Origin: Dehalococcoidia bacterium
Lineage (GTDB): Bacteria > Chloroflexota > Dehalococcoidia > SZUA-161 > SpSt-899
Reading direction: 5' to 3'
NCBI GenBank assembly: GCA_023271215.1
Contig: JALPYG010000001.1
Span: 1 to 51,156 of the forward strand
Length of the DNA stretch: 51,156 nt
Each line of letters opens with the position of its first letter. Position 1 is the stretch's first letter. Shown here piece after piece: positions 1 through 43,604 of the stretch. The position numbers were made by a program, and so were the translations under genes. The notes below the pieces were generated by a model. The model searched no databases, was not told the origin of the DNA, and worked only from the letters and a program-made list of their open reading frames with translations.

Positions 1-1
1 T

Positions 2-502
2 GAACAGGGATTAGACAAGCCGAGAGGTATTTTTGTGTGCAGTATGTCGGATTTATTTGGCATAGGCATTCCTTTAGAATGGACTGAGGCAATACTAAAT
101 GCGATGGATAATAAACATGATCGTTTCTATATCCTGACAAAACAGCCCCAGAACCTGATCAAATTCTCGCCGTTTCCGGATAATTGTTTTGTTGGTTTTA
201 CCGCTACGACAAATGAGCAGATTCAATATGGCTTGGCCCATATCGCCGATGTAGAAGCGAGGGTTAAATATATCAGTTTTGAACCTCTGCTGGAAAAAGT
301 GTCGCTCCTTGCACCGGAGATGGTTGATTGGGTAATCATCGGTGGACAATCGGGGCCAAGTAGGTTTCACCCCCCTGAAGAATGGATTCAGGAAATAGAG
401 GATGCCTGCGATAAGTGTGGCATACCTGTTTTTGAGAAGAATAACTTGAGACCATCCGGGGCACTTAGACAGGAAATGGCGGAGGCAAATCATGGGAAAT
501 AG
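2..502 (+). CDS. Gp37/Gp68-family phage protein (DUF5131-like), 5' end cut by window edge
   Basis: The frame is open back to nt 2 (EQGLDKPRGIFVCSMSDLFG...). The blocks IFVxSMSDLF, YILTKQPQN, ISFEPLLE and DWVIIGGQSGP fit my recollection of this family. The next gene overlaps its 3' end. Confidence 0.7.
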   Translation, partial: EQGLDKPRGIFVCSMSDLFGIGIPLEWTEAILNAMDNKHDRFYILTKQPQNLIKFSPFPDNCFVGFTATTNEQIQYGLAHIADVEARVKYISFEPLLEKVSLLAPEMVDWVIIGGQSGPSRFHPPEEWIQEIEDACDKCGIPVFEKNNLRPSGALRQEMAEANHGK

Positions 503-689
503 TTTTATGCGAAAGTCATTGCCATCTGGGAAGCATGGATTCAGGTATTCCCACAAAGGGTATTGTAGTGTATGTGGTCAACAGGGTCCTACGGTATACT
601 GGGATGACACGATAGGCAGACATTATTTTGCTCTATGCTCCGACTGCTGCCAAATTATAATGGCAATCCATGAGAGTAAGGACCTTTGA
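492..689 (+). CDS. small CxxC...CxxC zinc-ribbon protein (family member 1 of 3)
   Basis: GGAGG lies upstream of the ATG. Motif CSVCGQQGPTVYWDD...ALCSDCC. Clear paralogue of 3921..4118 and 21714..21875. Confidence 0.6.
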   Translation: MGNSFMRKSLPSGKHGFRYSHKGYCSVCGQQGPTVYWDDTIGRHYFALCSDCCQIIMAIHESKDL

Positions 690-700
690 GGAGGCAAACG

Positions 701-838
701 ATGAGTAGGCCAATCTATAATTGCATCCATTGCTGGGAAGATTGTGATTGGGCGGGGATAGAGAGGCTAGTATGGAGCGAAGACGAATGCGAATTAGGAA
801 TTATCTACGAAAATGATGAGGTTGACGAGACGAGATGA
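701..838 (+). CDS. small Cys-rich protein (45 aa)
   Basis: Below the size cut-off of the ORF track. GAGGAGG SD lies about 6 nt upstream of ATG 701. Its stop overlaps the next start (ATGA at 835). Motif CIHCWEDCDW. Confidence 0.45.
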   Translation: MSRPIYNCIHCWEDCDWAGIERLVWSEDECELGIIYENDEVDETR

Positions 839-1032
839 GAAAACGCACCTCTCGCAAGTGGCCGATTCCGAACGACCAATGGGCGATTGTTCGGGGGGAG
901 TTGCGAAGGGTTGTTGCACGTGCCACAACCCCTAAACCGGATCATCCTTGCGGGGCCTGTGATTCTAGCAATTGGTGGCAGAGGAAAGATGGCGGATGGG
1001 TTTGCGGTCGATGTTATCCCCGGCCGTGGTAG
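835..1032 (+). CDS. small zinc-ribbon protein
   Basis: Motifs CGACDSSNWW...CGRCYP. ATGA-coupled to the upstream ORF. Confidence 0.55.
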   Translation: MRKRTSRKWPIPNDQWAIVRGELRRVVARATTPKPDHPCGACDSSNWWQRKDGGWVCGRCYPRPW

Positions 1033-1039
1033 TGAAGTA

Positions 1040-1935
1040 GAGAGGAGGCAGCGTTGAGTTTCGTCCAGTCTCGCTGGGCAATGCAAAGGTGAGGTCAAGT
1101 GAAGTGTGGTTGTACAGAGTACTGTAGAGCAAAGGCGGAGCAGAGTGGTGTGAAGTGCGGTCCAGCGCAGTTCAGTGGAGTAACGCGCGGCAGGGGTAAC
1201 ATTGCGTTGGGTCGCGTTTTGTAGCGCAAAGGCGAAGCAGGGCAGAGTCGTGCACGGTGTGGCGCTGAGTGTTGTACTGCAAGGGCAAGGTAACGTGTGG
1301 CTGTGTTTTGTTCAGTTGTGTGGGGTGAAGTGAAGTAAAGGCGGTGTTAAGCAGTGTGGACCAGCGCGGAGGTAACGCAAAGTGCGGTGGTGTGGGGCGT
1401 CGCAAAGGCAATGTAGCGTGGAGTTGTGTTTTGCTCGGTGGTGTCGGGTGAAGCGAAGTGAAGGCAGTGTGGTGTCTGGTGAAGCGAGGTGAAGGCAGCG
1501 TTGAGTTTCGTCCAGTCTCGCTGGGCAATGCAAAGGCGGGGTATAGTGAAGTGTAGTTAAGTGATGTAGAGCAAAGGCGGTGTTAAGCAGTGTGGACCAG
1601 CGCGGAGGTAGCGCTGAGCGCGGTGACGTGGTGTCGAGTGAAGCAAAGTAAAGGCGGTGCTGTGTTTAGTTGAGTCCTGTAAGGTATTGTGACATGCTGT
1701 AAGGTAAAGGCAGTGTTGAGTTGCGTGTGGTTTTGCTCGGCAATGTAAAGGCGGGGTATAGTGAAGTGTAGTTAAGTGATGTAGAGCAAAGGCGGTGTCA
1801 AGCAGTGTAACGCAAAGGCACAGCAAGGTAGGGTGAGGTGACGTTGCGTAATGTAAAGCAAAGGTGTGGTGTTGTATGGTGCAGCAAGGGCGAGGCTTGG
1901 CATGGCATAGCGAAGTAAAACAAAGGAGGTAAGCA
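1040..1935 (+). repeat. ~0.9-kb non-coding, C-depleted (G/T-rich on + strand) region of interleaved direct repeats
   Basis: No + strand ORF of 60 aa or more. An identical 43-bp repeat sits at 1047-1089 and 1494-1536. A 62-bp repeat sits at 1532-1593 and 1747-1808 (1 mismatch). A 38-bp repeat sits at 1337-1374 and 1573-1610. About 18 copies of a CAAAGGCGG-like core are spaced at irregular intervals of roughly 25-100 nt. Hand counts of several 60-nt lines give C near 13% and G near 40%. Confidence 0.8.
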
Positions 1936-1938
1936 AGA

Positions 1939-2550
1939 ATGTACCGTAGGTATCAAGTGGAACTTGAGACCATAACCGAGCTTCTGGGCACGCAACCAGT
2001 CCAAGAGATTCGGCAAGAGCATCTCCCTACTAGGGAGGATGAGGAGGTGTTTGAAGGTGCGGGTGAGGAGAAAGAGCGCCCCACAACCTTCTATGTCCAC
2101 GACGGTAAAATTTGTCTCATGGACTACCAAGTGAAAGGGTGGTTCAAGGAGGCCTTTGGCGAGTTTCCTCAGTTCACGGGGATTAAGGGGCGTACTAAGG
2201 AATGGGCCAGTGCAACCACCGTGAAGGGGCGAATTGACAAATGGTTGTTCATCTCCCCTCGGTATATTCCTTTTGTGCGGGGTGGCAGGGAGATAACGAA
2301 ACCCGAAAGTGTCCTGTCTAGGATCGTGAGAGGCATGGGGGTGGGCGGAGTGCCTCGTGTTGTCCCCGTTAATTCGGACTCTCTCGATCCAGGGGTGAGG
2401 ATAGCATTCCAGATCAAGATAAGGGAAAACTGCCCCATAGACATGGAAGCCCTCAAAGGAGTCCTCCCCTATGGAGAGGAGTTCGGGCTTCTTGGTTGGA
2501 GAAGCGCTGGCTTCGGGAGCTTCAAAGTGATAAGCATTCAAGAGGTCTGA
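1939..2550 (+). CDS. hypothetical protein with C-terminal glycine-rich loop (LLGWRSAGFGSF)
   Basis: AAAGGAGG SD precedes ATG 1939. It is the first real gene after the repeat region. The overlapping minus-strand ORF 1798..2541 is judged spurious. Confidence 0.7.
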   Translation: MYRRYQVELETITELLGTQPVQEIRQEHLPTREDEEVFEGAGEEKERPTTFYVHDGKICLMDYQVKGWFKEAFGEFPQFTGIKGRTKEWASATTVKGRIDKWLFISPRYIPFVRGGREITKPESVLSRIVRGMGVGGVPRVVPVNSDSLDPGVRIAFQIKIRENCPIDMEALKGVLPYGEEFGLLGWRSAGFGSFKVISIQEV

Positions 2551-2595
2551 ACACTACGCCCTTGCTGCACCTTTGTCTTAATTGGAAAGAGAGCG

Positions 2596-2946
2596 ATGAA
2601 GCGGATCTGCAAAGATAAGAAAGAGGACGAGTTCTATCTTTTTACTCCTGAAGAAAAAGAGGAGCTGGTAAAGATTGTGCATTTAGGCGAAAAGGCGCTC
2701 AAATTGTATGAGCTGACTCGGGAGTTGATGGAGAGAGCAAAGGTAGCCGGCGAGATTGGAAATCGGCAGGAGTTTATGGATATGTATAAAAAGGCACTTG
2801 AATGCCGCTTGCTTGCTACTAACACTGCTCTTGAAGGTGTAGAGAAACAGATTGAGTTTTATAGAGGCATTGCTCGGGTTGAGGGGTGGGAGATATCCTC
2901 AGAAGAGGCGATGGTTGAGGATAAGGATGGCAGTAACCAAGCCTAA
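2596..2946 (+). CDS. hypothetical helical/coiled-coil protein
   Basis: Plus-strand ORF in register with the operon, with charged heptad-like composition. Confidence 0.55.
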   Translation: MKRICKDKKEDEFYLFTPEEKEELVKIVHLGEKALKLYELTRELMERAKVAGEIGNRQEFMDMYKKALECRLLATNTALEGVEKQIEFYRGIARVEGWEISSEEAMVEDKDGSNQA

Positions 2947-3178
2947 GTGCCGCATTTGTGGCAAAGAGATTAAACCCTTTGCCCAGTTCTGGCTCAGGGA
3001 ACCGGACAGGTACAACACCGAAGGGTTTGCAGTTGAGCGAGGCAGGGCCATGCCGTTCTGCAGCTTAGGCTGCGTGTTTGGCTGGAGTGGGAAGATGCTG
3101 CGAGAGCAAAAGAAGGCAAGGGATAGGAAAGACCTGGAACTGGCTGAAGCTGGCGAGGAGGAGGCAAATTGTGGATGA
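2927..3178 (+). CDS. TRASH/FCS-type zinc-finger protein
   Basis: Internal ATG 2927 follows GAGGATAAGG. The CRICGKEI...FCSLGC spacing is typical of CxxC...FCSxxC fingers. It has an acidic C-terminus. Confidence 0.5.
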   Translation: MAVTKPKCRICGKEIKPFAQFWLREPDRYNTEGFAVERGRAMPFCSLGCVFGWSGKMLREQKKARDRKDLELAEAGEEEANCG

Positions 3179-3476
3179 TCTTAGTTCAAAACTAAGGAAA
3201 GATTTAGAAAGTATCTTGGGCGATGAGGTTGAGCAATCTAAGACTAAGAGAGAGGGGTTGGACGAAACTTTGGTTGCGGAATTATTTGACGAAGCTTTTG
3301 CATGCGGGGTTCCACTTGAAAAAGACAGGTCACAGCTTATGTTTGTGTTTAACATGTTGATAGAGAATCTTTCAATCCGTGATGCATTGGTACTAGCATT
3401 TGGTTTGGGAAGGGGGTATCAAAAAAGGATGTCGCAAATGGAGAAGGAAAATGGCAAATCTGGCGGGGATAGCTAA
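3171..3476 (+). CDS. hypothetical protein
   Basis: GTG 3171 follows GGAGGAGG and overlaps the upstream stop. The longer ATG 3078 start would overlap the previous gene by 100 nt. Confidence 0.45.
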   Translation: MDDLSSKLRKDLESILGDEVEQSKTKREGLDETLVAELFDEAFACGVPLEKDRSQLMFVFNMLIENLSIRDALVLAFGLGRGYQKRMSQMEKENGKSGGDS

Positions 3477-3927
3477 CGATGGGGAAAGCTGTGCTATAGA
3501 CGAACACGAGGTCAAGCGGCTGTATCTCGAAGAAAAACTGCCCATAAACCAGATTGCTAACACTCTCGGGGTACCGCGCTACGCTGACAAAATCAAAGGC
3601 ATTTTAGCAGCACAGGGGATCGAAATCCTCTGCTGGTGTGGACTCCCGCGGAGAGGGCATACCCGGTGCGACGGATGCGGCATCCTGGTTGGGCCCAAGC
3701 ATATCACGAAGACTGTTCAGCAATATGAGGGCAAGGGTTATTGCGATAGCTGTTTCGAAAGGCGAGTGAGAGGAGCGCCACCCGAGGGCTGGGATCGATT
3801 TTTAGGGATGACTGAAGATGATGATGACGACGAGGAGGAGGAATATATCGAGCTTGCCAACCTCGGCATGGAGGACTACGCGCGTAGACTGTGGGGAATC
3901 GAGCAGGAGGAGCATGAAAAATGGTAA
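3451..3927 (+). CDS. HTH plus Cys-rich (zinc-ribbon-like) protein with poly-acidic tail
   Basis: ATG 3451 follows GGAGAAGG. HTH-like segment LPINQIANTLGVPRY, Cys cluster CWCG...CDGCG...CDSC, and a DDDDDEEEE run. Confidence 0.55.
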   Translation: MANLAGIANDGESCAIDEHEVKRLYLEEKLPINQIANTLGVPRYADKIKGILAAQGIEILCWCGLPRRGHTRCDGCGILVGPKHITKTVQQYEGKGYCDSCFERRVRGAPPEGWDRFLGMTEDDDDDEEEEYIELANLGMEDYARRLWGIEQEEHEKW

Positions 3928-4118
3928 ATACATTTATCCACGTAACAGTCCACAACGATTTAGGTGACTTCGATTATTTTGCCAGAGGGTTTTGCAGTGT
4001 GTGTGGGAAGGAGAAGCCTGTCGTCAATTGGACAGATAAGCTGGGCACACGCAGCTTTGCATTGTGTCAGGGCTGTGCCGAGGCGATTGTGGTAATACAT
4101 CAGAGGCAAAACCGGTGA
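3921..4118 (+). CDS. small CxxC...CxxC zinc-ribbon protein (family member 2 of 3)
   Basis: CSVCGKEKPVVNWTDKLGTRSFALCQGCAEAIVVIH aligns residue-for-residue with 492..689. Confidence 0.6.
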   Translation: MVNTFIHVTVHNDLGDFDYFARGFCSVCGKEKPVVNWTDKLGTRSFALCQGCAEAIVVIHQRQNR

Positions 4119-4150
4119 ATACGAAAAGTGGCGCAAGAAGAGGAGCCAAA

Positions 4151-4444
4151 ATGAACAAGCGGGATTTGACGCCGGCCGAGAAGCTGTGGATAGAGGTTTT
4201 CGGACCTCGCGGCCTGCCTGAACTGGATGACAGGAAGGTAGCAGAAATCCTTGACAGCCTTCCTGACCGTGAGCGACTGGTGGTATACATGCGCTTTGGA
4301 GAGAAGGGGCATGGGCAGTCTTTCAGCAGTATTGGAAAGAAGCTCTCCCTATCGAAGGAGACGGTGCGGTTAAACTTGAAACAGGCCATACGTCATCTCC
4401 GGCACCCCAGCCGGCGCAAGGCGTGGGAGGAGGCGCGGAGATGA
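4151..4444 (+). CDS. sigma-70 region-4-like / LuxR-type HTH protein
   Basis: ATG 4151 follows GAGGAG. LPDRERLVVYMRFG...QSFSSIGKKLSLSKETVRLNLKQAIRHLR matches the region 4.2 HTH pattern. Confidence 0.65.
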   Translation: MNKRDLTPAEKLWIEVFGPRGLPELDDRKVAEILDSLPDRERLVVYMRFGEKGHGQSFSSIGKKLSLSKETVRLNLKQAIRHLRHPSRRKAWEEARR

Positions 4445-4764
4445 GAGGCCGGGATTGGTATACTGACTTCATGAACCGGACTTTTGAGGAACTCATGGAG
4501 CGCCTCGCTAAGGATTGTGAGAAGGTTTTTGGTGAATTTGATGCGTCAAGGATCATGGGGCAGCCCGGTCTGGCATTGAATAAAGGAGCGGCCTATCATA
4601 TGCTTGGTCTAGAGGAATCGGCCTCGGACGAGGAGGTAAAAAAACGGTACCTGAGCCTTGTCAAGCGGCTGCACCCAGATGTGGCCGGCAGGGAAACGGA
4701 GCACCTGTTCAAGCTCGTCCATGTGGCCTATGAGCAGATTTCGAAGGAAAGAGGCTGGAAATGA
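4441..4764 (+). CDS. J-domain (DnaJ-like) protein
   Basis: ATGA overlap with the upstream stop. YHMLGLEESASDEEVKKRYLSLVKRLHPDV contains the HPD tripeptide in J-domain context. Confidence 0.75.
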   Translation: MRGRDWYTDFMNRTFEELMERLAKDCEKVFGEFDASRIMGQPGLALNKGAAYHMLGLEESASDEEVKKRYLSLVKRLHPDVAGRETEHLFKLVHVAYEQISKERGWK

Positions 4765-5684
4765 TAAACCTAACAGAGAATGACAAAGAGGGACTACAGA
4801 GGATACTTGAATACGAGAACGCCACTGACCGAGATCCAGAGCATTTCTCTCAATTTGGCTGGAGCTGGGACACGGTCAGGGTTTGGCCGGCTACGCTTAA
4901 CCGGCTAATCCAGATGGGATTACTGGAGGTTGTCTCGCACAGTAACAGCTATCGGGGAATGAAGTTGACCCCGGAGGGCTATGCCATTGCCCAGAGCTTA
5001 GGTAACCCACAGGCTGCCGAGGATGAAGTCCCAGCGATTCCCGATAGCCTGCCGGAGGATATCTTCCAGGACATCGTAGGCCACGAGAAGATCAAGAAAT
5101 TGCTGAGAGCTGTTGTCCTCGCTGCAAAGCCGGTGCACGTGCTTCTCTCGGGACCGCCGGCGCTGGCAAAGAGTTTATTCCTCCTAGAGTTGGAGAGGGT
5201 GTTGGGCAGTCGTGCTCACTGGGCACTGGGGTCGGCGGTATCTAAAGCCGGCCTCCAGGAGATGCTTTTGGAATTCCGGCCTTACGTCTTGCTCATCGAC
5301 GAGCTCGATAAGATGGACGGCAGGGATCAGGCCGCCCTCTTGTCGGTGATGGAAGGGGGGGGAGTGAGCAGGACGAAGGTGGGACGGATGGCCGATGAGA
5401 AGATTGAATGCCGAGTGGTGGCAACGGTTAATGTCCTGGGGAAGCTTCCCCCGGAGCTGACTTCCAGATTTGCTGTCAAGCAAGTTCGCCCTTACACCTC
5501 AGAGGAGTTCAAGAAGGTGGTCGAAGGGGTGCTGCAGAGGCGTGAGGGAATGGAAGAGTCAGTAGCGCTGAGCATAGCTCAGAAGCTGGATGGACGGATC
5601 CAGGATGTGCGAGATGCTATCAGGGTGGCTCGTCTGGTGCCTCAGGTTGGGTTAGAGGAGGCAATAATGCTGCTCCTAGGTTGA
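4761..5684 (+). CDS. AAA+ ATPase with N-terminal winged-helix-like region
   Basis: ATGA overlap. Walker A-like LLSGPPALAKS (atypical Ala before Lys). Walker B VLLIDELDK. Downstream VVATVN sensor-like strand. Confidence 0.7.
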   Translation: MINLTENDKEGLQRILEYENATDRDPEHFSQFGWSWDTVRVWPATLNRLIQMGLLEVVSHSNSYRGMKLTPEGYAIAQSLGNPQAAEDEVPAIPDSLPEDIFQDIVGHEKIKKLLRAVVLAAKPVHVLLSGPPALAKSLFLLELERVLGSRAHWALGSAVSKAGLQEMLLEFRPYVLLIDELDKMDGRDQAALLSVMEGGGVSRTKVGRMADEKIECRVVATVNVLGKLPPELTSRFAVKQVRPYTSEEFKKVVEGVLQRREGMEESVALSIAQKLDGRIQDVRDAIRVARLVPQVGLEEAIMLLLG

Positions 5685-5775
5685 TTTGCCGCTGGAATAG
5701 GCTTAAACTAAATACAGGGGATACAGGGGGGTAACCGGGGGCATGGCCGAAGAGAGTAAGGGAGAAAATGCCTTG

Positions 5776-5814
5776 CCATAGCTACTGGTGCCATAGTTAC
5801 TCACCATAGTTACT
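5776..5814 (+). promoter_or_regulatory. three direct repeats CCATAG(C/T)TACT (putative operator/iteron set)
   Basis: Copies at 5776-5786, 5791-5801 and 5804-5814, 20 nt upstream of ATG 5834. Confidence 0.4.
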
Positions 5815-5833
5815 TGTAGAGGGGGGAATAGAA

Positions 5834-6763
5834 ATGTTTACTTGCAGCATATGTGGTAAAAAGTTTAAGACCATGCAGGCTCTTGGTGGACATATGTCCC
5901 ATGCCCACGTGCACGACAAGACCAAGAACCAACCCCCGGCTGAGCCTTCTCCTCCTCCTAGTCAGCCAACCGATCAGGTTCGTGAGGATGGGAATGTGCC
6001 CGAGAACAACGCCTCAGAGCTTGGTAAAGCTGTTTCGGGGGAGCCACCCCAGCCCACGGATAAGGAGCTCGGTGTCATGGACAGTATCCGGGAGCTACGG
6101 AACCGCGGCTACAGCCCCAAGCAAGTGAGGGAACAGTTTGAATATCCCCGTCAAACCGTGGACCGGGTATTTGCCGAATATATCCCGCCAGAGGGAAAAG
6201 TGGATGAGACAAGATCGAATCAGGATAAAAAGCGGGAGACAATGCCAGCGGTCTACAAGAAGGACGAGCGCACGAACCCAGAAGTGCTACTGCGGGGATT
6301 GGCAGATGGTGACCACGAGGCTGAACTGGAATTCCGGGGAATGATGAAGTTGAGAGCGGCGATGCTTATGGTCATGGACTTGATGAGTATTCAGAGGACA
6401 GCCGCAGAGGCTGATGCGCTCAGGATCAAACCAATCCTAGATTTGATGAAAGAGACTAGGCTGGAGCAAGACGCCGCCGCTGCCAGGGCCAAAGAATCCA
6501 GCAAAGACATAGCGGATCGTGCCGCCTATGAAGGGGCGAGAATACTGGCGGAGCAGGTGGTACCGGAGGTGCGGACGCTGATGGAGAAGCAGAAACCTGC
6601 TCCGGCTGGGAAGACTATACACGATCGCATGTTCGGTCCGATAGCCGATATGATGGGCCAGCAAATGGGGAACATGTTCAGCGGCATGTTTGGGATAAGT
6701 TCCGCTGGGCAGCAGCCCCAAGTTCCACCAGGTTGGGAATACGAAGAGGTGAAAGGAGAGTAA
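5834..6763 (+). CDS. C2H2 zinc-finger protein with Pro-rich linker, coiled coil and Met/Gly-rich C-terminus
   Basis: FTCSICGKKFKTMQALGGHMSHAH is a classical C-x2-C-x12-H-x4-H finger. The C-terminus reads MFGPIADMMGQQMGNMFSGMFG. Confidence 0.7.
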   Translation: MFTCSICGKKFKTMQALGGHMSHAHVHDKTKNQPPAEPSPPPSQPTDQVREDGNVPENNASELGKAVSGEPPQPTDKELGVMDSIRELRNRGYSPKQVREQFEYPRQTVDRVFAEYIPPEGKVDETRSNQDKKRETMPAVYKKDERTNPEVLLRGLADGDHEAELEFRGMMKLRAAMLMVMDLMSIQRTAAEADALRIKPILDLMKETRLEQDAAAARAKESSKDIADRAAYEGARILAEQVVPEVRTLMEKQKPAPAGKTIHDRMFGPIADMMGQQMGNMFSGMFGISSAGQQPQVPPGWEYEEVKGE

Positions 6764-6766
6764 GTA

Positions 6767-7009
6767 ATGGAGTTTCCACAGATGGGTGTCTCGGCCGAAG
6801 ACATGGAGCGAGCAAAACAGATAGGAGGATATTACACCGTGGTGATCCGGAAGTGCCATAAGGACAACAAATTCGAGGTGCAATTTAACCCCCGGACCGC
6901 TGAGGCTGCGGCGAATATCCCTCAACTCATCGACAACATGGTCCTGCAATTAGGTATCCAGATGAATACCTTTTTTGGGATTCAAGGAAAGATCGAGAAC
7001 GTGAAATAG
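6767..7009 (+). CDS. hypothetical small protein
   Basis: GAAAGGAG SD; 3 nt after the upstream stop. Confidence 0.55.
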   Translation: MEFPQMGVSAEDMERAKQIGGYYTVVIRKCHKDNKFEVQFNPRTAEAAANIPQLIDNMVLQLGIQMNTFFGIQGKIENVK

Positions 7010-7061
7010 ACGGTCAAAACGTAGCTAATTGTGGGGATAACGGTCGAAATTTAGCTATGGT

Positions 7062-7111
7062 CATGGCAATTGCCATGGCAAGTTGACAAACTTTCGTAGC
7101 TGTGCTAGTGT
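7062..7111 (+). promoter_or_regulatory. 16-bp perfect palindrome followed by a sigma70-like promoter
   Basis: Palindrome CATGGCAATTGCCATG at 7062-7077. TTGACA at 7083-7088, then a 17-nt spacer, then TAGTGT at 7106-7111. Confidence 0.4.
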
Positions 7112-7134
7112 AAGATAAACATTTAAGAGAGACC

Positions 7135-7198
7135 AAAAAAGGGCGGGACAGCAACCTTCGACTGAGAGGTTGAGGGCTGTCCCGCCCTTTCCTTTTGG
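7135..7198. terminator. long GC hairpin flanked by A-run and T-rich tract (bidirectional intrinsic terminator)
   Basis: AAAAAAGGGCGGGACAGC...GCTGTCCCGCCCTTTCCTTTT, a 12-bp perfect outer stem. Confidence 0.7.
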
Positions 7199-7337
7199 TC
7201 GAGGTTGCTCTTCCGGGAATATGTGGAATATCTATTTCGGCCGACTGCTTATGCTTATGTTTGCTATGAGGCTCGTTGCTGAGCCTCGCAATGGCCGTTC
7301 AAATCCGCAGCCTCCGACTGAAGAAAGGACATCAAAA

Positions 7338-7369
7338 GGGGAAACATCTGAAGGGATGTTCCCCCTTTT
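7338..7369 (+). terminator. intrinsic terminator
   Basis: GGGGAAACATC-tgaagg-GATGTTCCCCC followed by TTTT. Confidence 0.6.
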
Positions 7370-7523
7370 GTTTGCACAGAGGCGAGAGTGGGCGAAGAAA
7401 GCAGTAGAGGGATATATAAGAGCGCAGGATAAGAAGTGGCTGAACTGGGAAGAATCTATGTTCGTCCTATCAGGGTCGGCCCGCCAGCCGGCAAAGAACA
7501 AAAACTAAGTAAGGAGGAAGAAC

Positions 7524-7745
7524 ATGGCTTATGCTACTTTTGAGGATCTGAAGCGAGGGGTCATTGATAGATTCACCGCGAACACCACCGCTGAGAGGTT
7601 CAAGAGAGGGCTGAACCGGGTAGCTGCTCCAGGAATGGAGGCTTGTCCGGACACGGCCGAGCTCTATGACGAGCGGACGGACAGGGATGCGGCAGAGTTG
7701 CTGGTAGAACGCTGGTCAACCAGCCGGCTGTTCAGGAGGAGATAA
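7524..7745 (+). CDS. hypothetical small protein (first gene of the structural-looking block)
   Basis: TAAGGAGG SD 6 nt upstream of the ATG. Confidence 0.6.
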   Translation: MAYATFEDLKRGVIDRFTANTTAERFKRGLNRVAAPGMEACPDTAELYDERTDRDAAELLVERWSTSRLFRRR

Positions 7746-7850
7746 CGACTGATGCCTTGGTCTTCTCCTGCCATAGTGGCGGCTGTGGTTGAGGAGAAGC
7801 CAGCGGAATACCAAAAGGCTTTATAAAAGCCAGAATAAGGAGGTAAGCAA

Positions 7851-8078
7851 ATGTTTGGAGCGCAGCAGGTCCACGGCCCGACTCCCCAAGGCGGTTTCGG
7901 CTCAGCACAGGTTACCGGCCCCTCCCCGATGCAGATTGGGGGACCACCGGCCTACCTCCCGATGCAGGCCGTCCCCGTCGGATTCGACATGAACGCTATG
8001 ATGAACATGATCATGATGATCATGATGATGGGCATAATGGTGGGCATGATGAAGCCGATGCTGGAAGGGGTGAGATAG
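7851..8078 (+). CDS. small tail-anchored protein with Met-rich C-terminal helix
   Basis: AAGGAGG SD. C-terminus FDMNAMMNMIMMIMMMGIMVGMMKPMLEGVR. No N-terminal signal-like segment. Confidence 0.7.
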   Translation: MFGAQQVHGPTPQGGFGSAQVTGPSPMQIGGPPAYLPMQAVPVGFDMNAMMNMIMMIMMMGIMVGMMKPMLEGVR

Positions 8079-26505: not shown

Positions 26506-29310
26506 ATGGTTACCGCAGCCACTGTAACAGCACCAAGAACCATCTCAATGGAAGAATTCCGCCGGGAATGGGAGCCGAAGGGGTGGAGACTTATTATCAT
26601 CGGTCCCACCTCCACTTGGCGCCAAGAGTGGGGGATGTGGGAAGCCATCAGGGACATTGTCCAGAACTCATGTCCACACGATATGCCTCTTCTGATTTTG
26701 CAAAACCAGAGAGTTAAGTTTGTGCCCATTGGGGAATTTGTGGAAATGCATTTGGAAGATGAAAGGCAGGGCACCGTTAAAGACGAGGTTTATGCCTTAT
26801 CCTTCAAGAATCACAAAAGCCGGGGATATAAGCTGAGATGGCAAAGGATTCACAAAGTCTATCGCCATCATTATCAAGGAGATATGGTTGAGGTATCTCT
26901 CACCAATGGCCTAAAGGTAAGGGTTACCTGCGGGCACAGCTTATTCCGGAGAGACCTCAAGAAGGGCAGGATGTGGCTATGCTCTGTTCCCACTGATCGG
27001 TTGCACAAAACAGACTATATTGCCATTCCTTTTGCTAAATTGCTTGATTTCCCCGCCGCGGATGAAGTTGACTTGCTGGAGTTTCTTGAGCAGGAAAAAG
27101 ATTCCCTTAGAGTTCGAGGTATGTGTGATACCCTAGAATCCGTAGGTGTGGAAGTCAGTAAAGACGGCCGGAGCCGGGATTCGATCCCGCTCTGGACGAT
27201 ACCTGTTCCTCTACCGAAGGATACCTTACTTGGATACCACCATGCTTCCCATCCTGTTCGTAGAACTCTTCCCCTTGAACCACTGGCCTATCTACTCGGA
27301 CTTTACCTTGCAGAAGGTTCAATTGTGAATCACAGGAAGAAGGGCGACAAAGCTGTGTGCTTTTCCTTAGGTACACATGAGCATGAAGTCCTAGAGAAAG
27401 TGAAGAGGTGCGCCGAGCAAATTGGGGTAGGGGTCTCAGTTCAGCACCCACACGAAACAGCCATAAACACTGTCCTTAAATGTCATGTTCTTGCCCTTGT
27501 TTTTGAAAGGCTTTTTGGGAAGACTCGAGCAAATACCAAAGCCATCCCGGATTTTATTTTTAATCTCCCACATAAATTCCAGACGAAATTCCTCGAAGGA
27601 TACTTTGACGGCGACGGCTATGATCAAGGAGACAGAATAATTATAACCACCGCATCAAAGAAAATAGCCCAAGGTCTCCAGTATCTCCTTCTTCTTAATG
27701 GTATTCCCTTCAGCATCGAAGAGCAAGAAGGTAAAGAAAGGGTTATTGGCAAAAATAGAACCTTCTCTGGACCAGCAAATTACCTCTATATTCGCAAGTC
27801 GGGTCTTAACGGTAATGTCTCAAAGAGCCCTATTGCACGACAAAGGTGTGGTGACCTTAGCTTCGTCGGTGTGAAAGAGATTAAGCCTGTCGAGTATAAG
27901 CATCCGTGGGTCTATGATATAGGTGTTCCAGGGTGCGAGAACTTCGTCGGCGGGGAGAGTCCAGTCATACTACATAACTCCCTCGACGAGGCTGAAAAAT
28001 ATACCTGGGGCTTTGATGAAGAGGGTCTGTGGATCAAGGACCGGGGACAGGGCGTCCAGGTTGCCGACTTCCTCTTGGGTCCTCCCAGAACCAAGCCGCC
28101 TCATGCCAGGGGAAGATTTGGCGAAGGGATGAAGATCGCCGCCCTGGTGATGCTCCGCGAGGGATATGCCATCAGGATAGATACCGTGGGTCGGTCGGTG
28201 TGGATGATCTTCCTGGAGCAGGAAATAAACGGTACTGCCGAGGTCCTGGCGGCTATGTGGCGGCCCAATGGCTTGGACAGGGGAACTCGTTTCCACATCA
28301 TCGGCTACTTCGGGGATGACTACAAGTGGAACTTCGCTGTAAATATCCCCAGGAAGTTCATTGCTCATGAGGGCCCCAGCCGGCTCCACGAACCCATCAG
28401 ACGTTTCAACCAACTGATACTTTCCCCCAGTGGTAAGATCTACGCCCGGGATATCTACATGAGGGACATCAAGAGTCCCTACTCCTACAACCTCTGGAGC
28501 TTTGAAATGGCTCCCGATCGCCATGGCCCAAAACATGAATCCGACATGTGGGTCGACATGGGTCGCCTCTGGGCTACCTGCAAGCGCAAAGAACCCCTGC
28601 AGGTCTTGCTTCGGATGGTATCTATGCCTCCTGTTCTTGCAACTGATGAGTCTGTCAATCTCTCCATGAGTCCCTGGGACATGGGCCCCGAGCCGGTTTC
28701 CGGGAAGCGTTATACCGAAATCATGGAAGACAACAAGAAGGTGTGGCAGGATGCATGGAAAGAGGCTCACGGCGAGAATGCTGTCCTCAGACAGTCGGAT
28801 CGCTGGGACACTATGGTGACCCACCTAGGATACAAGTCGGTTAGTGTTTTCTACGGTGTTACTGATGCCCTTTCTAAGGTTATCTTGACTGATGAAGCTC
28901 TCATTCGGGACTCGCAGAAAAGGCTGGCTGAGGTTGAGATTATTCCTGATGAGGAGCTCACTGAACGCCAGCGTGCTCACCTCAGGCTGGCGCGCAAAAT
29001 AGCCGAGGCGACCCTAGTGCGTGAGCTTACCGGTGTCCACGCTGCCATAATACCCCCGGCAAGCGATCGGATGCGCACCGCGGGTCTCTACAGCTCAGCG
29101 GCTGAGACAATATACATCGCTGCTGACCAGCTCAACACGGCTCGGGCAACTGTGGATGTCCTGATCCACGAGATGGCTCATCATACCAGCGGGAGAGAAG
29201 ACGGCGATCCACTTCACAATGCACAGATGACGGTCCTGGGATCTCGGGTGGTGCAGTTGACAGCAGAGGGGCGCTTTGACGAGGAGTTGAAGAAGGCGGT
29301 GTGGTATTAA
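26506..29310 (+). CDS. GHKL (HATPase_c_3/MORC-like) ATPase with C-terminal HExxH domain, interrupted by an intein
   Basis: The extein gives the N-box DIVQN(S)SLDEA, the G1 box IKDRGQGV and the G2 box GRFGEGMKIAAL. The C-terminus has VLIHEMAHHTSGRED. Confidence 0.75.
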   Translation: MVTAATVTAPRTISMEEFRREWEPKGWRLIIIGPTSTWRQEWGMWEAIRDIVQNSCPHDMPLLILQNQRVKFVPIGEFVEMHLEDERQGTVKDEVYALSFKNHKSRGYKLRWQRIHKVYRHHYQGDMVEVSLTNGLKVRVTCGHSLFRRDLKKGRMWLCSVPTDRLHKTDYIAIPFAKLLDFPAADEVDLLEFLEQEKDSLRVRGMCDTLESVGVEVSKDGRSRDSIPLWTIPVPLPKDTLLGYHHASHPVRRTLPLEPLAYLLGLYLAEGSIVNHRKKGDKAVCFSLGTHEHEVLEKVKRCAEQIGVGVSVQHPHETAINTVLKCHVLALVFERLFGKTRANTKAIPDFIFNLPHKFQTKFLEGYFDGDGYDQGDRIIITTASKKIAQGLQYLLLLNGIPFSIEEQEGKERVIGKNRTFSGPANYLYIRKSGLNGNVSKSPIARQRCGDLSFVGVKEIKPVEYKHPWVYDIGVPGCENFVGGESPVILHNSLDEAEKYTWGFDEEGLWIKDRGQGVQVADFLLGPPRTKPPHARGRFGEGMKIAALVMLREGYAIRIDTVGRSVWMIFLEQEINGTAEVLAAMWRPNGLDRGTRFHIIGYFGDDYKWNFAVNIPRKFIAHEGPSRLHEPIRRFNQLILSPSGKIYARDIYMRDIKSPYSYNLWSFEMAPDRHGPKHESDMWVDMGRLWATCKRKEPLQVLLRMVSMPPVLATDESVNLSMSPWDMGPEPVSGKRYTEIMEDNKKVWQDAWKEAHGENAVLRQSDRWDTMVTHLGYKSVSVFYGVTDALSKVILTDEALIRDSQKRLAEVEIIPDEELTERQRAHLRLARKIAEATLVRELTGVHAAIIPPASDRMRTAGLYSSAAETIYIAADQLNTARATVDVLIHEMAHHTSGREDGDPLHNAQMTVLGSRVVQLTAEGRFDEELKKAVWY
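26668..27978 (+). mobile_element. intein with LAGLIDADG homing-endonuclease domain (~436-437 aa)
   Basis: N-terminal (S)CPHDMPLLIL. Block B GLKVRVTCGHSLF. LAGLIDADG motifs LLGLYLAEGS and FLEGYFDGDGY. C-terminal VYDIGVPGCENFVGGESPVILHN followed by Ser. The first intein residue is either Ser (26668) or Cys (26671). Confidence 0.8.
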
Positions 29311-38924: not shown

Positions 38925-39413
38925 TTGAATACAACCAAGACAATCGAGAAAGGCATCTCCGAGTTAGTGGGTGTCTTCACTGATCCTATCATTGCGTATC
39001 CCAGCCCATGGAGGGAAGATATCCCCCAGTGGATCAAGGATCAAATAAAGATGGAACGCCTCGTGATGAACATGAAGGTTCTCAGGGGAGAACAGCCAAC
39101 CGGGACCGATGCCGAAGCCCTGGCCTACCTTATCCCGGCCAGCCTCGAGCACCCGATCGGTAGAGACTGGACGGATATCTACATGTATCTGGTTACCACA
39201 GTATCTATCAGGGCTGGTAAAGAGCTACCGGAGAATATCCGAGTGGAGACCCTCAGCGAATACCTCATGCGAAAGCTCAATCACCTCAAGTCCTGGCTGT
39301 ATCAGCAGCGAGTGAAGGCAAGGCTGGAGCGAGAGCGAGGCGAGAGGCGAAAAATGAAAGAGGAAGAGATAGCGCGGAAAAGGACAGAACAGTTGGCGCT
39401 ATTCGAGTTCTAG
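38925..39413 (+). CDS. hypothetical protein with basic/acidic coiled C-terminus (last gene of the element)
   Basis: TTG start follows AAAGGAGG. A strong terminator follows the gene. Confidence 0.55.
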   Translation: MNTTKTIEKGISELVGVFTDPIIAYPSPWREDIPQWIKDQIKMERLVMNMKVLRGEQPTGTDAEALAYLIPASLEHPIGRDWTDIYMYLVTTVSIRAGKELPENIRVETLSEYLMRKLNHLKSWLYQQRVKARLERERGERRKMKEEEIARKRTEQLALFEF

Positions 39414-39434
39414 TTTGCCAAACTTGGGGAATCA

Positions 39435-39471
39435 GGGGCCGGGGGTTCAACTCCCCCGGCCCCCTTTTTTT
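39435..39471 (+). terminator. strong intrinsic terminator with T-loop-like loop
   Basis: GGGGCCGGGGG-TTCAACT-CCCCCGGCCCC (11-bp perfect stem), then C and T7. Confidence 0.85.
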
Positions 39472-39740
39472 GTCCAAGATAACAAAACAGGCTTTTGTTC
39501 TATTAAGCCGTACTTCTTCTAAGAGTGCGGTCCCTCTCTACGTGCCTTCGTCTCTCCATCTTGCACGAACCTCAGTCCGCCGATGTTTTTGTCAATGAAA
39601 AAGGCGCCAGTCTGACGGTATATTCTCTCTTCCTTCCCAAAAAGCTACCGTAAATTGAAAAGCTGAAGGCCGAGGCTAAACCTGAGTCAATATCTGTGCA
39701 AATTTGCAAACCCGCCAGGTTTTTCCCAAAAACTCACCTA

Positions 39741-39998
39741 TTACCCATCGGTACAACCTTCCAGTGTCTCTAAACGCTTCCCAGCCCAGTCCTCAACCTG
39801 ATTGAGCCGGTGATCACCCAGGGAAAGGATGTGGGTCAACCAGATCGCGCTCGTCCAGCCCAGGCTCATCCCGTGCCAGTTGCCATGCGTAGGAAAGCAT
39901 TGATCCAACGTGGGCTGAACGCCCATCCTTTCCATTTGCGCCAACAAAACAGGAATGTCTTCCACCAGTTCGTCGGTTATGGTAAGATCCTCGTTCAT
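39741..39998 (-). pseudogene. N-terminal fragment of an IS1634/IS4-type transposase (DUF4277-like)
   Basis: The 85 aa DIPVLLAQMERMGVQPTLDQCFPTHGNWHGMSLGWTSAIWLTHILSLGDHRLNQVEDW resemble the N-terminal module of these ~500-aa transposases. The rest is missing. Confidence 0.55.
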
Positions 39999-40299
39999 AA
40001 TACCTACATCTTACCATCATTTCCTATCTTTGTCAGATTTCGAGCGAACCATGGGACGTCTGTCTTAACAGTTCTCTCAATAACCGCTAGAGAAATTAAT
40101 GAATTATACCAAGTCTCATAGATAAGGCATTTTGTGGCCTGTTTATCGCACCAGTCGTTCCTGTTCCTGTAGAATGGACAATCATCACTCGCCGGACACA
40201 GTCTTGAATCCTCCTTTCATTAAATCTCCTTTCCATGATCTTCTCATTTCACTTAATCGCTCTTCGTCTAACGGCTACTCAGCGAAACATGCAAGATTA

Positions 40300-40968
40300 T
40301 TAAACTTCATCAATCCACCTTATCCCTAATCGCTCTAGAGTTGGCTTTACGGACCTTTCACAAATGGTTCCCCAATCCTCGGCTTCTATTCCCCTGCAAC
40401 AAGAAAAGAGGTCTATTTTTAAGGGGATATTTCCATATTTAGATTCAAACGTGATCGCCCCTTCGATTGACCATTCATTCTTAGAATTTGGCAACTCTAT
40501 TATCCTGTCTGCTATCACTGAGAATTCCTCTTCACGATGCCTTATTTCTTTAGCCAATGTCCAAAGGGAAAAATCGATGATAGGATTAAAGAAGATCGTA
40601 ATAGAAAGCTCCCCCAAAGCCTTTAGCTTCCCCTCACTTGTGTGAGGACGAGTTAGGTTACTGGCCCATTCATCACCTTTCTCCCACCTCATAAGTTGTA
40701 GAGGAATATTTTTGTAAAGGAATATACAATCGATACACTTAATATGGACATCATCAAAACCTCTACTATATAGCAATAGAGTGAAAGCCAAAGGGGGAAA
40801 TGAGTGCCCCGAGGGTCCTGTCCGAAGCTCTCCCTTCACCCTTTCAATTGCGATCTTTTCTTGCAAAGCATCTCTTGCCCTTTTCTTAATCTTTTCTATA
40901 GGGATCCCAAATAATGGTTTAATTATTGGTCCCACCATAGGATTGACAAGCAAAGCACCAAGATCCAT
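40300..40968 (-). CDS. orphan hypothetical protein in an AT-rich island
   Basis: 222-aa ORF. Local composition is visibly more AT-rich than the flanks. No motif recognised. Confidence 0.55.
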   Translation of the reverse strand: MDLGALLVNPMVGPIIKPLFGIPIEKIKKRARDALQEKIAIERVKGELRTGPSGHSFPPLAFTLLLYSRGFDDVHIKCIDCIFLYKNIPLQLMRWEKGDEWASNLTRPHTSEGKLKALGELSITIFFNPIIDFSLWTLAKEIRHREEEFSVIADRIIELPNSKNEWSIEGAITFESKYGNIPLKIDLFSCCRGIEAEDWGTICERSVKPTLERLGIRWIDEV

Positions 40969-41382
40969 CTAAACTTTCCTCTCAACCAAGGATATCTTTA
41001 CTTTGGTTCCTCCTTTGTTTCCGTTGCTGTCTCTATCAACAGAATAGAGAAACCCGATTCTTTTATCAAGGTCTTTCAATCCCAACGCCGCCTATGCCTT
41101 GTGGAAATGCCATGATTGACGCTCCTAGGGAAAACCTGATGAACAGACAGGCTGCCCGCAGGTTTACCCTTGACAAGTTGAGGGGTAAACCCCATCCGCT
41201 TGGAAAAGTCTTCGACTTTCCCACAATCATTTGGATAACTGCTCCGCAGTTACCCACATCCCACAAGGTCGATTATTACTGATTCAATAGGTCAAAGAGC
41301 TAAAATCATACAAACTTGGGATAAAGCCGATAATTGAGTACAATGCCGTGCCTAGTTTTCAGCCCGGCCACACATTTTTGCC

Positions 41383-41748: not shown

Positions 41749-41776
41749 AACTCTTTGCCTCCATGTCCACCTCCGT

Positions 41777-42151: not shown

Positions 42152-42168
42152 TCGGTATACCCCTCCTC

Positions 42169-42795: not shown

Positions 42796-42832
42796 TTTGC
42801 AGCCCCCTTCCGTTAGAATTTGATGTCAGAAC

Positions 42833-43582: not shown

Positions 43583-43604
43583 ACCAAGGCCTCCTTCTAA
43601 TCTT

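Follow-up and report, generated by a model that had tools for sequence, protein, structure and literature searches.

A probable VIPR locus with a pentanucleotide repeat array on a prophage-like element in a Dehalococcoidia contig

The window analyzed here, a 51,156-nt stretch of a contig filed under a Dehalococcoidia MAG, carries a 0.9-kb repeat region between an ORF at 835-1032 and a gene for a protein of 203 residues (Table 1). The repeats start 4 nt past the stop codon of the upstream ORF and end in the Shine-Dalgarno (SD) sequence of the downstream gene, 7 nt ahead of its ATG; no sigma-70-like promoter or terminator was found flanking them. An earlier note on this DNA had described positions 1040-1935 as C-depleted and free of plus-strand genes, and both statements hold. 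The base composition is A.235, C.140, G.396 and T.229 (the window as a whole has C.237 and G.279), and the two longest plus-strand ORFs inside the region encode 41 and 43 aa. As the note had also recognized, the long minus-strand ORFs, of 118, 89 and 247 aa, reflect the scarcity of C on the plus strand. By gene content, the location is viral or proviral. Phage-like genes in the window encode a DUF5131 protein, a sigma-70 region 4 protein, a DnaJ-domain protein, an MCM-like AAA+ ATPase (2.8 kb downstream of the repeats), a tail-like protein, an S8 protease and a beta-clamp, and cellular-type genes appear from ~40 kb onward. Positions 1-8000 have no DNA similarity to known phages, and the motif GTAGAGCAAAGGCGG returned only single chance matches in IMG/VR. 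No CRISPR-type pattern of 25-40-nt repeats and spacers was found in the window, nor were Cas families among the 28 other window proteins scanned.

Table 1. Features of the candidate VIPR locus, in window coordinates (a hyphen within a motif marks the junction).
Feature	Position	Strand	Basis
Candidate vrRNA array	1036..1932	+	Phase tracking, autocorrelation, shuffle control
Segment starts, first half	1047, 1088, 1134, 1195, 1231, 1258, 1284, 1340, 1371, 1407, 1463	+	
Segment starts, second half	1494, 1535, 1576, 1607, 1653, 1709, 1750, 1791, 1817, 1863, 1889	+	
Example segment junction GCAAA-GGCGG (the "core" of the earlier note)	1129..1138	+	Phase tracking
Segment present twice	1047-1087 = 1494-1534 exact; diverged third copy 1709-1749	+	
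Other exact segment duplicates	1535-1575 = 1750-1790; 1340-1370 = 1576-1606	+	
SD sequence AAAGGAGG of the vipr-like gene (plausible)	1922..1929	+	9 nt before the ATG at 1939
vipr-like gene, 203 aa	1939..2550	+	AF2 model, Foldseek, profile comparison
Next ORF, 116 aa, where a vap gene could sit	2596..2946	+	Position

Phase tracking resolved the region into ~176 consecutive units of the form N-G-Y-N-N. Position 1 can be any base, position 2 is G in 96% of units, position 3 is always a pyrimidine (T 67%, C 33%), and positions 4 and 5 are variable with a bias against C (only 9-12%); the G-Y pair stands at positions 2-3 in 168 of the 176 units. Steps between units are 5 nt in 151 cases, 6 nt in 21, 4 nt in two and 7 nt in one. 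The autocorrelation of G at lags of 5, 10, 15 and 20 is.38,.31,.19 and.11, respectively, and is ~0 in the neighboring coding sequence. The G-Y chain scored 114.25, compared with 5.13 ± 1.23 (maximum 12) in 200 dinucleotide-preserving shuffles, which together with the skewed composition confirms that the repeat region is real and non-random. The best score elsewhere in the window was 5, and no second array was found there.

The 6-nt steps give the array its second level of order. Every 5-12 units the phase is shifted by a 6-nt unit, NGYAAA, with GGY after it, which splits the array into ~22-23 segments, each 5-12 units or 26-61 nt long. Thirteen of the 21 +1 slips end in AAA and the rest in GAA, AAG, GGA or AGG; the unit after the slip starts with GG in 20 of the 21. 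The earlier note had taken CAAAGGCGG as a core repeat or binding unit recurring about 18 times at irregular intervals. We find instead that this core is the junction between pentamer tracts, and because 6-nt units punctuate a tract of 5-nt periodicity, the cores are spaced strictly at 5n+1 (26, 31, 36, 41, 46, 56 ... nt). As written, [CT]AAAGG[CT]GG occurs seven times, all inside the region and nowhere else in the 51 kb; the higher count is approached only with relaxed forms (13 for [AG][CT]A[AG]AGG[CT], 19 for AAGG[CT][AG]). GTAGAG and GTAGCG, said to precede the core often, do so three times each.

Duplicated segments account for the three families of long direct repeats that had been reported. 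All three exist with some correction of length: 44 rather than 43 bp at 1046/1493, 52 bp exact (62 bp only near-exact) at 1532/1747, and 38 bp, exact as reported, at 1337/1573. A 107-nt repeat family is present in three copies, at 1040, 1487 and 1702. Duplication of this kind shows recent slippage or recombination, as would be expected had the whole array arisen by neutral, functionless expansion of a pentanucleotide microsatellite. Such expansion does not explain why the unit has two near-invariant positions and three that vary freely, and it is contradicted by the comparative data given below, in which the same pattern lies beside homologous genes in dozens of unrelated genomes. We assign it a next-to-negligible probability.

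Sponge RNAs of the CsrB/RsmZ type carry GGA in many hairpin loops and titrate a global regulator. The earlier note had likened the region to them, or to a decoy for the anti-SD, with ~18 SD- or GGA-like sites titrating a CsrA-type regulator or the 3' end of 16S rRNA. The one-strand bias and the many AAGG-containing sites are compatible with this idea, and the last core copy is, as had been suggested, plausibly a genuine SD. The supposed sites are array junctions, however, and what stays constant is the G-Y at 5-nt intervals rather than AAAGG. The likeness to an SD is incidental, as AGGCGG mismatches the anti-SD in its middle, and the junction of a close relative (L046), GCAGAGGC, is less SD-like still. 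Nor is the hairpin architecture present: the fold energy of the RNA is no better than that of shuffles on either strand (z +0.24 and -0.33), no stem-loops present the motifs, and an Rfam search of the region returned no match. With a RAMP gene rather than a CsrA-type protein as the conserved partner, we consider a sponge or decoy very improbable.

That partner was identified by structure and profile rather than by direct search. The 1939-2550 protein alone had no matches in Pfam, PHROGs or PADLOC, and tblastn with it did not find Escherichia phage SUSP1, whose Vipr is compared below; a scan of 70 family members gave only weak Cas6/RAMPs matches and the unnamed phrog_4652, with no PADLOC match for the family. 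A first AF2 model from four sequences (pLDDT 59.5) already retrieved Cas7 in Foldseek at TM 0.35-0.44. The model from a 70-sequence alignment (pLDDT 90.6, pTM 0.85) is a single-RRM RAMP with the element order β1, helix 62-75, helix 92-102, a β-hairpin thumb (residues 124-149), helix 169-182, a C-terminal glycine-rich loop (G183-L-L-G-W187-R188-S-A-G-F-G193) and strand 195-202. Its best 50 Foldseek matches in the PDB are all Cas7-type RAMPs (Cas7, Csm3, Cmr4), with E to 4.4e-7 and probability 1.00. Searching the PDB with the family profile (hmmsearch) returned type VII Cas7 (E 9.2e-5), Csm4 (1e-3) and the "SUSP1 Vipr protein" 36pp_D (E 8.4e-3). In hhalign, the 70-sequence profile matched SUSP1 Vipr (gp039) at 92.5% (E 4.7e-7, 177 columns), spanning residues 7-205 against 2-192 and hence the full length, with a remote identity of ~20% between SUSP1 Vipr and the 1939-2550 protein. 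The gene encodes a Vipr-type RAMP, and the earlier note had thus pointed to the right product for binding tests.

The residues that read RNA in SUSP1 are partly retained. There, W178 and R179 stack on G2 and hold Y3, and H17 and D177 read G1 (10.64898/2026.04.26.720920, 10.64898/2026.04.26.720927). The W-R pair is kept as W187-R188 in the glycine-rich loop. H17 and D177 are without counterpart, as H17 falls in a gap (stretch LLGTQP) and G186 occupies the position of D177; the absence of the G1-reading residues agrees with the occurrence of any base at position 1 of the unit.

As a broader test of the pairing between protein and array, we examined related loci. The three closest homologs (47-52% identity) all adjoin arrays of the same logic, with 86 units in one (L042), 170 in another (L046) and a third array cut by the contig end (L047); their NN content is unrelated to that of the window array. 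Junctions of the type GC[AG][AG]A-GGC recur in L042 and L046, and NGCAAA or NGCAAT junctions in many distant family arrays. Among 134 distant family loci, gathered with a 9-sequence family alignment, 56 contain a G-Y pentamer chain, called at a chain score >10; the 41 control viral loci scored 7 at most. The array lies within 400 nt of the family gene in 54 of the 56, on the same strand in 52 and downstream in 44. The best 30 of the 56 arrays advance mainly by 5 nt; steps of 6 nt make up 10-25%, and steps of 4 nt hardly ever occur. Conservation in related elements, which the earlier note had named as a check, is therefore borne out: the pairing of protein and array is conserved across the protein family, and the survey shows +1 punctuation to be general across this Vipr clade.

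These data also bear on whether the repeats act as double-stranded DNA, as an iteron-type or R-loop-primed origin, a partition site or a packaging site that is bound by the neighboring protein or primed by a G-rich transcript. Direct repeats beside a small conserved gene would suit such an element, as would the nearby MCM-like ATPase, a G-rich non-template strand that favors R-loops, and the placement of the array either up- or downstream of the gene, as for centromere-like sites. That 52 of 56 arrays are co-oriented with the gene instead favors a transcript and counts against a dsDNA site. Furthermore, the units are 5 nt rather than 17-22 bp, GC is.53 throughout with no AT-rich unwinding element, and the GC-skew switch that had been proposed as a check is absent at the array, the sole one lying at ~39.5 kb. 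The partner has a predicted RNA-binding RAMP fold, not that of Rep, ParB or TerS. The origin and packaging proposals of the earlier note are consequently not supported, and a dsDNA role of any kind seems to us decidedly improbable. Helical phasing on dsDNA (period 5.1-5.2 nt, two units per ~10.3 bp) was likewise considered and dropped in light of the RAMP/Vipr link and strand conservation.

A VIPR (Viral Interference Programmable Repeat) locus consists of a gene for a ~20-kDa Vipr protein with intergenic repeat RNAs of consensus YNNGG at its flanks; most such loci are proviral (10.64898/2026.04.26.720920). Positions 1036-2550 combine a small RAMP with homology to Vipr, a pentanucleotide array far longer than the four-unit minimum, a viral location and no other cas genes, and we conclude that they very likely constitute a VIPR locus on a prophage-like element. 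The view that the region is a multi-site, protein-bound RNA element of one strand thus fits the Vipr-homologous RAMP next door, although the specific mechanisms first proposed for it do not. VIPR is classified into seven types, I-VII, and loci "typically" include a vap gene (10.64898/2026.04.26.720920). The ORF at 2596-2946 has no Pfam or PHROG match and no homolog in 140 related loci, among which vipr has no conserved vap-like neighbor. The structured 3' tail that follows each repeat tract in type II is also absent, as is any conserved hairpin between tracts. This excludes a type II-like architecture but not VIPR membership, since tail-less staggered arrays have been reported, along with the alternative consensuses NNNGG, YNNNG and NNNNG (10.64898/2026.04.26.720920). 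As N-G-Y-N-N is YNNNG in another register, the variant at hand is most likely a staggered array with a relaxed YNNNG-type consensus. According to the legend of fig. S18 in that preprint, staggered vrRNAs overlap by 1 nt, the end of one being the start of the next (10.64898/2026.04.26.720920). A terminal ..NG and an initial GGY sharing one G would give exactly the 6-nt step and the 5n+1 spacing, and the NGYAAA-GGY junctions most likely mark where one guide ends and another begins. Confirmation by small-RNA sequencing extends to the ribozyme-interspersed and single-vrRNA architectures but not to staggered arrays (10.64898/2026.04.26.720920).

SUSP1 Vipr polymerizes along its repeats with one protomer per 5-nt unit (10.64898/2026.04.26.720920, 10.64898/2026.04.26.720927). 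By analogy with SUSP1 and the Pseudomonas fulva prophage, the array would be transcribed from the plus strand, probably by read-through from the upstream operon, as there is no room for a promoter of its own. A helical filament would form as Vipr protomers polymerize on the RNA, each covering one pentamer; protein pockets would take up the flipped-out G-Y that is invariant in every unit, leaving the two variable bases exposed for pairing. The NN string could then read a dsDNA target, skipping one base for every unit (NNx), and so form an R-loop or triplex that blocks transcription. For the long segment 1134-1194, the predicted target would read GGxAGxGGxGAxGCxCCxGCxTCxGGxAAxGC; a competing phage or other mobile element would be the likely target.

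Searches for such targets returned none that we accept. Self-targets in the window, with skips of 0-3, scored 0.79-0.81 at best against 0.80 for the shuffled null, and cross-targeting among the window, its relatives and 1.17 Mb of family loci equaled the null. Exact NNx patterns (1-nt skip) of guides 1134, 1284 and 1653 had no match in IMG/VR. The guide 1134 pattern matched five times in JGI metagenomes, in two unrelated genes: four near-identical matches fall at the N-terminus of an 886-aa permease-like ORF (LEEEMRLHLEM), with the skipped base at codon position 2, and the fifth in an unrelated 615-aa ORF. We treat these as chance, given that a rough estimate, with no computed control, anticipates ~1 chance match when a 22-base, G-rich pattern is run against metagenomes rich in GC.

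The empty searches raise the question of whether Vipr binds this RNA without targeting DNA, either to autoregulate vipr translation from a 5' leader or as an uncut 0.9-kb nucleoprotein filament. The array abuts the vipr SD without a gap; no tails, ribozymes or hairpins able to direct processing were found; and the short segments offer only 10-24 specifying bases. The scarcity of C at positions 4-5 and the three exactly duplicated segments would also be odd for a library of independent guides. A leader role cannot be general, however, because the array is downstream of the gene in most relatives, and relatives have entirely different bases at the NN positions, which is what guides would show. 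Given further that characterized Vipr homologs target DNA (10.64898/2026.04.26.720920), we regard a non-targeting filament as unlikely. Within the favored VIPR assignment, it is possible, if rather doubtful, that the +1-punctuated, tail-less array represents a mechanistically distinct architecture or an uncut 0.9-kb multi-guide filament. Guide boundaries would then be written only as NGYAAA-GGY, once per 5-12 protomers, a spacing that nearly equals one turn of the Vipr helix with its six subunits, and the filament itself or an unknown nuclease would set maturation and length with neither ribozyme nor structured tail. Loss of the two G1-reading residues would accompany the relaxed N-G-Y code. 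Alternatively, the RNA might never be cut and act as one long filament of many guides.

Together, these findings indicate that reading raw sequence can flag a VIPR locus, even though the region was at first explained otherwise. The locus supplies a large, clean example (~176 units, ~22 tracts) of a staggered, relaxed-consensus array, so far described from sequence only, and adds a provirus from a Dehalococcoidia-binned contig. A chain of G-Y in 5-nt steps with +1 slips serves as a simple operational detector that separates family loci from controls, and questions of processing and guide length become directly testable. For annotation, the region becomes a vrRNA array and the gene at 1939-2550 becomes vipr in place of "hypothetical protein."

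Several known systems invite comparison. The CsrB/RsmZ RNAs likewise are non-coding and offer many short purine-rich protein sites, but the array lacks their hairpins, its period is strict, and its partner is encoded next door and would polymerize. The best structural matches to the 1939-2550 product are Cas7 backbone filaments (Csm3, Cmr4, type VII Cas7). In class 1 Cas7 filaments, one RAMP subunit covers a fixed number of guide nucleotides and the thumb flips bases at intervals; the period in CRISPR effectors is 6 nt, compared with 5 nt here. The locus differs from class 1 CRISPR-Cas (type III/VII) in its single RAMP gene, its non-contiguous guide information, and its lack of a repeat-spacer array, Cas5, Cas6, Cas10, Cas1-2 and a second RRM. 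Cas6-like processing of a degenerate CRISPR array was rejected because repeats of CRISPR size are absent and the protein contains only one RRM. Type II VIPR, as in SUSP1 and the P. fulva prophage, shares the ~200-aa single-RRM RAMP with thumb and G-loop, a same-strand pentanucleotide repeat RNA flanking its gene, an invariant G and pyrimidine alternating with variable dinucleotides, and a phage or proviral location free of cas genes. The unit is G-G-Y-N-N in type II and N-G-Y-N-N here, and tracts run to 5-12 units here against the 9-16 reported for VIPR. SUSP1 has discrete tracts of GGYNN x ~12 plus a hairpin, in ~100-nt genes each with an upstream conserved sequence and a hairpin/pseudoknot tail; here these elements are absent and a single uninterrupted 0.9-kb tract contains +1 junctions. 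The 6-nt step and 5n+1 spacing resemble staggered vrRNA arrays insofar as the wording of the figure legend describes them, and the locus is a further example of the kind of VIPR already described in the 2026 preprint.

[quoted passage not shown] The array is real and biologically interesting. Read in register, the tract consists of consecutive pentamers (GTGAA GCGAA GTAGA ...), and its G autocorrelation at lags of 5, 10, 15, and 20 is.38,.31,.19, and.11, compared with ~0 in the adjoining coding sequence. Dynamic-programming phase tracking over 1033–1938 called 176 units, separated by 151 steps of 5 nt, 21 of 6, two of 4, and one of 7. G-Y occupies unit positions 2–3 in 168 of the 176 units. 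Position 1 accepts any base (G.33, A.31, T.23, C.13), position 2 is G (.96), position 3 is a pyrimidine (Y 1.00; T.67, C.33), and positions 4–5 are variable; variable positions are C-poor (9–12%). The chain score is 114.25, versus 5.13 ± 1.23 (maximum 12) for 200 dinucleotide-preserving shuffles.

The 6-nt steps separate ~22 segments of 5–12 units, laid out with GGY at the start and N-G-Y-A-A-A at the end. The Shine-Dalgarno (SD)-like core (C/T)AAAGG(C/T)GG, described in an earlier note as recurring about 18 times at irregular intervals, is a segment junction (GCAAA/GGCGG). Relaxed patterns give 13–19 copies, but the motif as written occurs only seven times, always within the array region and nowhere else in the 51 kb; the spacings (26, 31, 36, 41, 46, 56 ... 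nt) are not irregular but always 5n+1. Three segments are exactly duplicated, which accounts for the long direct repeats. These are real, with a 38-bp pair at 1337/1573, although the other exact lengths are 44 bp (1046/1493) and 52 bp (1532/1747) rather than 43 and 62; a 107-nt repeat family is present in three copies. The region is as the earlier note describes it, and + strand ORFs between the stop of ORF 835–1032 and the ATG at 1939 do not exceed 43 aa. Base composition across 1040–1935 is A.235, C.140, G.396, and T.229, compared with C.237 and G.279 for the whole window.

VIPR combines a ~20-kDa ancestral RAMP (Vipr) with vrRNAs of YNNGG (GGY/NN) pentanucleotide repeats, whose genes occupy intergenic DNA on either side of vipr, mostly in phages and proviruses (bioRxiv 10.64898/2026.04.26.720920). 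The 203-aa product of the window's vipr-like gene is named hypothetical protein M1O54_00015 (Dehalococcoidia bacterium) at NCBI, and searching it alone against Pfam, PHROG, and PADLOC returned no match. An exhaustive profile search recovered 1313 cluster representatives at E ≤ 1e-3, mostly of ~200–250 aa. AlphaFold (pLDDT 90.6, pTM 0.85; 70-sequence alignment) predicts one ferredoxin-like RRM core bearing a long β-hairpin (124–149) and a C-terminal glycine-rich loop, and the top 50 Foldseek PDB matches to this model are Cas7-type RAMPs throughout (Cmr4, Csm3, type VII Cas7, gRAMP; probability 1.00, best E 4.4e-7). Against PDB sequences, the family profile matched type VII Cas7 (E 9.2e-5), Csm4 (E 1e-3), and 36pp_D, "SUSP1 Vipr protein" (E 8.4e-3), while Vipr (gp039) of Escherichia phage SUSP1 aligned to it full-length with an hhalign probability of 92.5% (E 4.7e-7, 177 columns). 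In SUSP1 Vipr, the G-loop pair W178–R179 stacks on G2 and holds Y3, and H17 and D177 read G1 (the VIPR preprints, 10.64898/2026.04.26.720920 and 10.64898/2026.04.26.720927). W187–R188 is the window protein's counterpart of the G-loop pair. Counterparts of H17 and D177 are absent: a gap follows LLG17, and D177 aligns with G186 (most relatives have Q there); in this remote alignment, loss of the G1-reading residues would fit the free first unit position.

The three closest homologs (47–52% identity; contigs L042, L046, and L047, from groundwater and other metagenomes) each adjoin an array, downstream of the gene, that follows the same logic but is unrelated at the variable positions. We scanned both strands of 134 distant-member loci (80 GTDB species genomes and 54 from IMG/VR) for G-Y chains, with 41 unrelated viral loci as controls. 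The controls reached a maximum score of 7.0 (median 4.25), whereas 56/134 family loci exceeded 10 and 47/134 exceeded 15. The array was downstream of the gene, on the same strand, and adjacent (<400 nt) in 44 of the 56; upstream, same-strand, and adjacent, as in the window, in five; adjacent on the opposite strand, upstream or downstream, in four; downstream on the same strand but far in two; and overlapping the gene match (same strand, adjacent) in one. Among the 30 best arrays, 5-nt steps are broken by 10–25% 6-nt steps and almost never by 4-nt steps, mean runs are 4–8.6 units, and NGCAAA and NGCAAT are frequent as junction units. Because these arrays share the 6-nt steps, the +1 punctuation is clade-wide and not peculiar to the window.

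Features of the window and arrays of the three closest homologs (homolog coordinates refer to their own contigs)
Feature	Position	Strand	Remarks
Zinc-ribbon protein, 65 aa, CxxC	492–689	+	flanks VIPR locus
Zinc-ribbon protein, 65 aa, CxxC	3921–4118	+	flanks VIPR locus
934-aa protein with intein and LAGLIDADG homing endonuclease	26506–29310	+	Intein_splicing, LAGLIDADG_3, Hom_end
OMP decarboxylase	42833–43582	-	cellular-type gene past flip
1537-aa protein	43605–48218	-	N-terminal excisionase-like HTH_17; C-terminal NAD-binding Rossmann (AdoHcyase_NAD / 2-Hacid_dh_C)
GNAT acetyltransferase	48707–49186	-	cellular-type gene past flip
Enoyl-CoA hydratase	49361–49996	-	cellular-type gene past flip
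Reverse-transcriptase ORF	50366–51079	-	RVT_1 E 2e-20, phrog_1423; very end of contig
L042 array	5900–6340		86 units; position 2 G.99, position 3 C.76
L046 array	1916–2790		170 units; runs to contig end
L047 array	starts 960		cut by contig end

Contigs L046 (2790–2823) and L047 (960–1013) end within the array; the terminal sequence of L046 is poly-C and resembles an artefact of sequencing or assembly. Short-read assemblies seem to break at arrays of this type, which are probably under-represented in metagenome contigs. The largest array observed, directly downstream of a vipr-like gene on a 1.78-Mb Thermodesulfobacteriota MAG contig (L059 5588–7185), has 311 units over 1.6 kb. Opposite-strand chains beside a vipr-like gene (L125 3167–3830, L130 4256–4908, L150 4461–4845, L151 5577–6253) have a different logo, with G at position 1 in only 9–15% and junction units of the TGCCGG or CGCCTT type; they are either inverted arrays or a different consensus caught on the wrong strand. 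Another 78/134 family loci scored 10 or less (e.g., L087, L091, L152–L172), and several from gut Clostridia still have a best weak chain that starts directly after the gene (e.g., L087 5616–5682). Low-scoring loci may use another consensus (NNNNG-type) or have their array beyond the sequence examined. The window protein also had weak tblastn matches to two thermophile phages, cultured or assembled, in each case to a hypothetical protein: Hydrogenobaculum phage 1 gp16 (L048, locus 3128–3898; E 6e-6) and Aquificae Conch Spring virus (H3; E 1e-3). Both are possible further VIPR loci. The top-scoring G-Y chain at the Hydrogenobaculum locus reaches only 8 and lies at 4475–4537, ~580 nt downstream of gp16.

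In published systems, one Vipr protomer binds per repeat with GGY sequestered, the vrRNA NN dinucleotides read double-stranded DNA while skipping one base per unit, and competing phages or satellites are transcriptionally silenced (the VIPR preprints). By homology to these characterised systems, the + strand of the window array would be transcribed, one Vipr-like protomer would occupy each pentamer unit, the NN bases would be presented so as to recognise DNA with a 1-nt skip, and a competing element would be silenced. The array extends from 4 nt past the stop of the preceding ORF to the vipr SD. A promoter of its own would not fit, and the array thus probably lies within the operon transcript; neither a promoter-like nor a terminator-like site was seen beside it, but scans for a sigma-70 consensus may not suit Chloroflexota. 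The earlier idea of an RNA bound multivalently by the 1939–2550 product is supported, by analogy, by a Vipr-homologous RAMP beside a pentamer array. The functions proposed in that note, as a sponge RNA, anti-SD decoy, origin, or packaging site, found no support.

Self-targets in the window did not rise above the shuffled null at skips of 0–3, and the VIPR preprint likewise reports no self-targeting (10.64898/2026.04.26.720920). Targets were absent from 1.17 Mb of related loci, as were exact matches to three long guides in IMG/VR when one target base was skipped per unit. The array segment starting at 1134, used as a guide, had five metagenome matches, which represent two unrelated genes of cellular appearance, where the skipped base does not fall on the wobble position; we rejected them as targets, their number being about that expected by chance for a G-rich pattern (rough estimate). 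No vap-like (vipr-accessory) neighbour was recognised among the window ORFs and related loci.

Elsewhere, 39000–51156 looks like a provirus–host junction: GC skew is positive and genes lie on the + strand up to ~39.4 kb, beyond which both flip. A single weak inverted pair of 30 nt lies at 39710/41810. The reverse transcriptase could belong to a group II intron or retron, and a search of 39–51 kb yielded no DGR-style template/variable repeat pair. The intein host protein matches unnamed phrog_6077. The 1537-aa protein is an unusual domain combination, with ~1200 residues between the domains lacking assignment. The zinc-ribbon proteins look like paralogs (...YCSVCGQQGPTVYWDDTIGRHYFALCSDCCQIIMAIHE... 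vs ...FCSVCGKEKPVVNWTDKLGTRSFALCQGCAEAIVVIHQ...), the first having a weak match in related contigs L042–L044 (E 5e-4); further small CxxC ORFs lie at 701–838 and 835–1032.

Other VIPR consensuses have been reported, namely NNNGG, YNNNG, and NNNNG, and small-RNA sequencing backed ribozyme-interspersed and single-vrRNA architectures, not staggered ones (10.64898/2026.04.26.720920). The text of that preprint describes "staggered arrays" as variants in which adjacent vrRNAs come from positions overlapping by 1 nt. In the window, a G shared by the terminal ..N-G and the initial G-G-Y gives the 6-nt step, which we read as this 1-nt-overlap staggering as that text describes it. SUSP1 arrays differ: they are discrete tracts of ~12 GGYNN units, and every tract is preceded by a conserved sequence and followed by a hairpin tail. 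VIPR is a kind already described, in April–June 2026, and the window locus is a further example, most likely of its less-studied staggered, relaxed-consensus variety.
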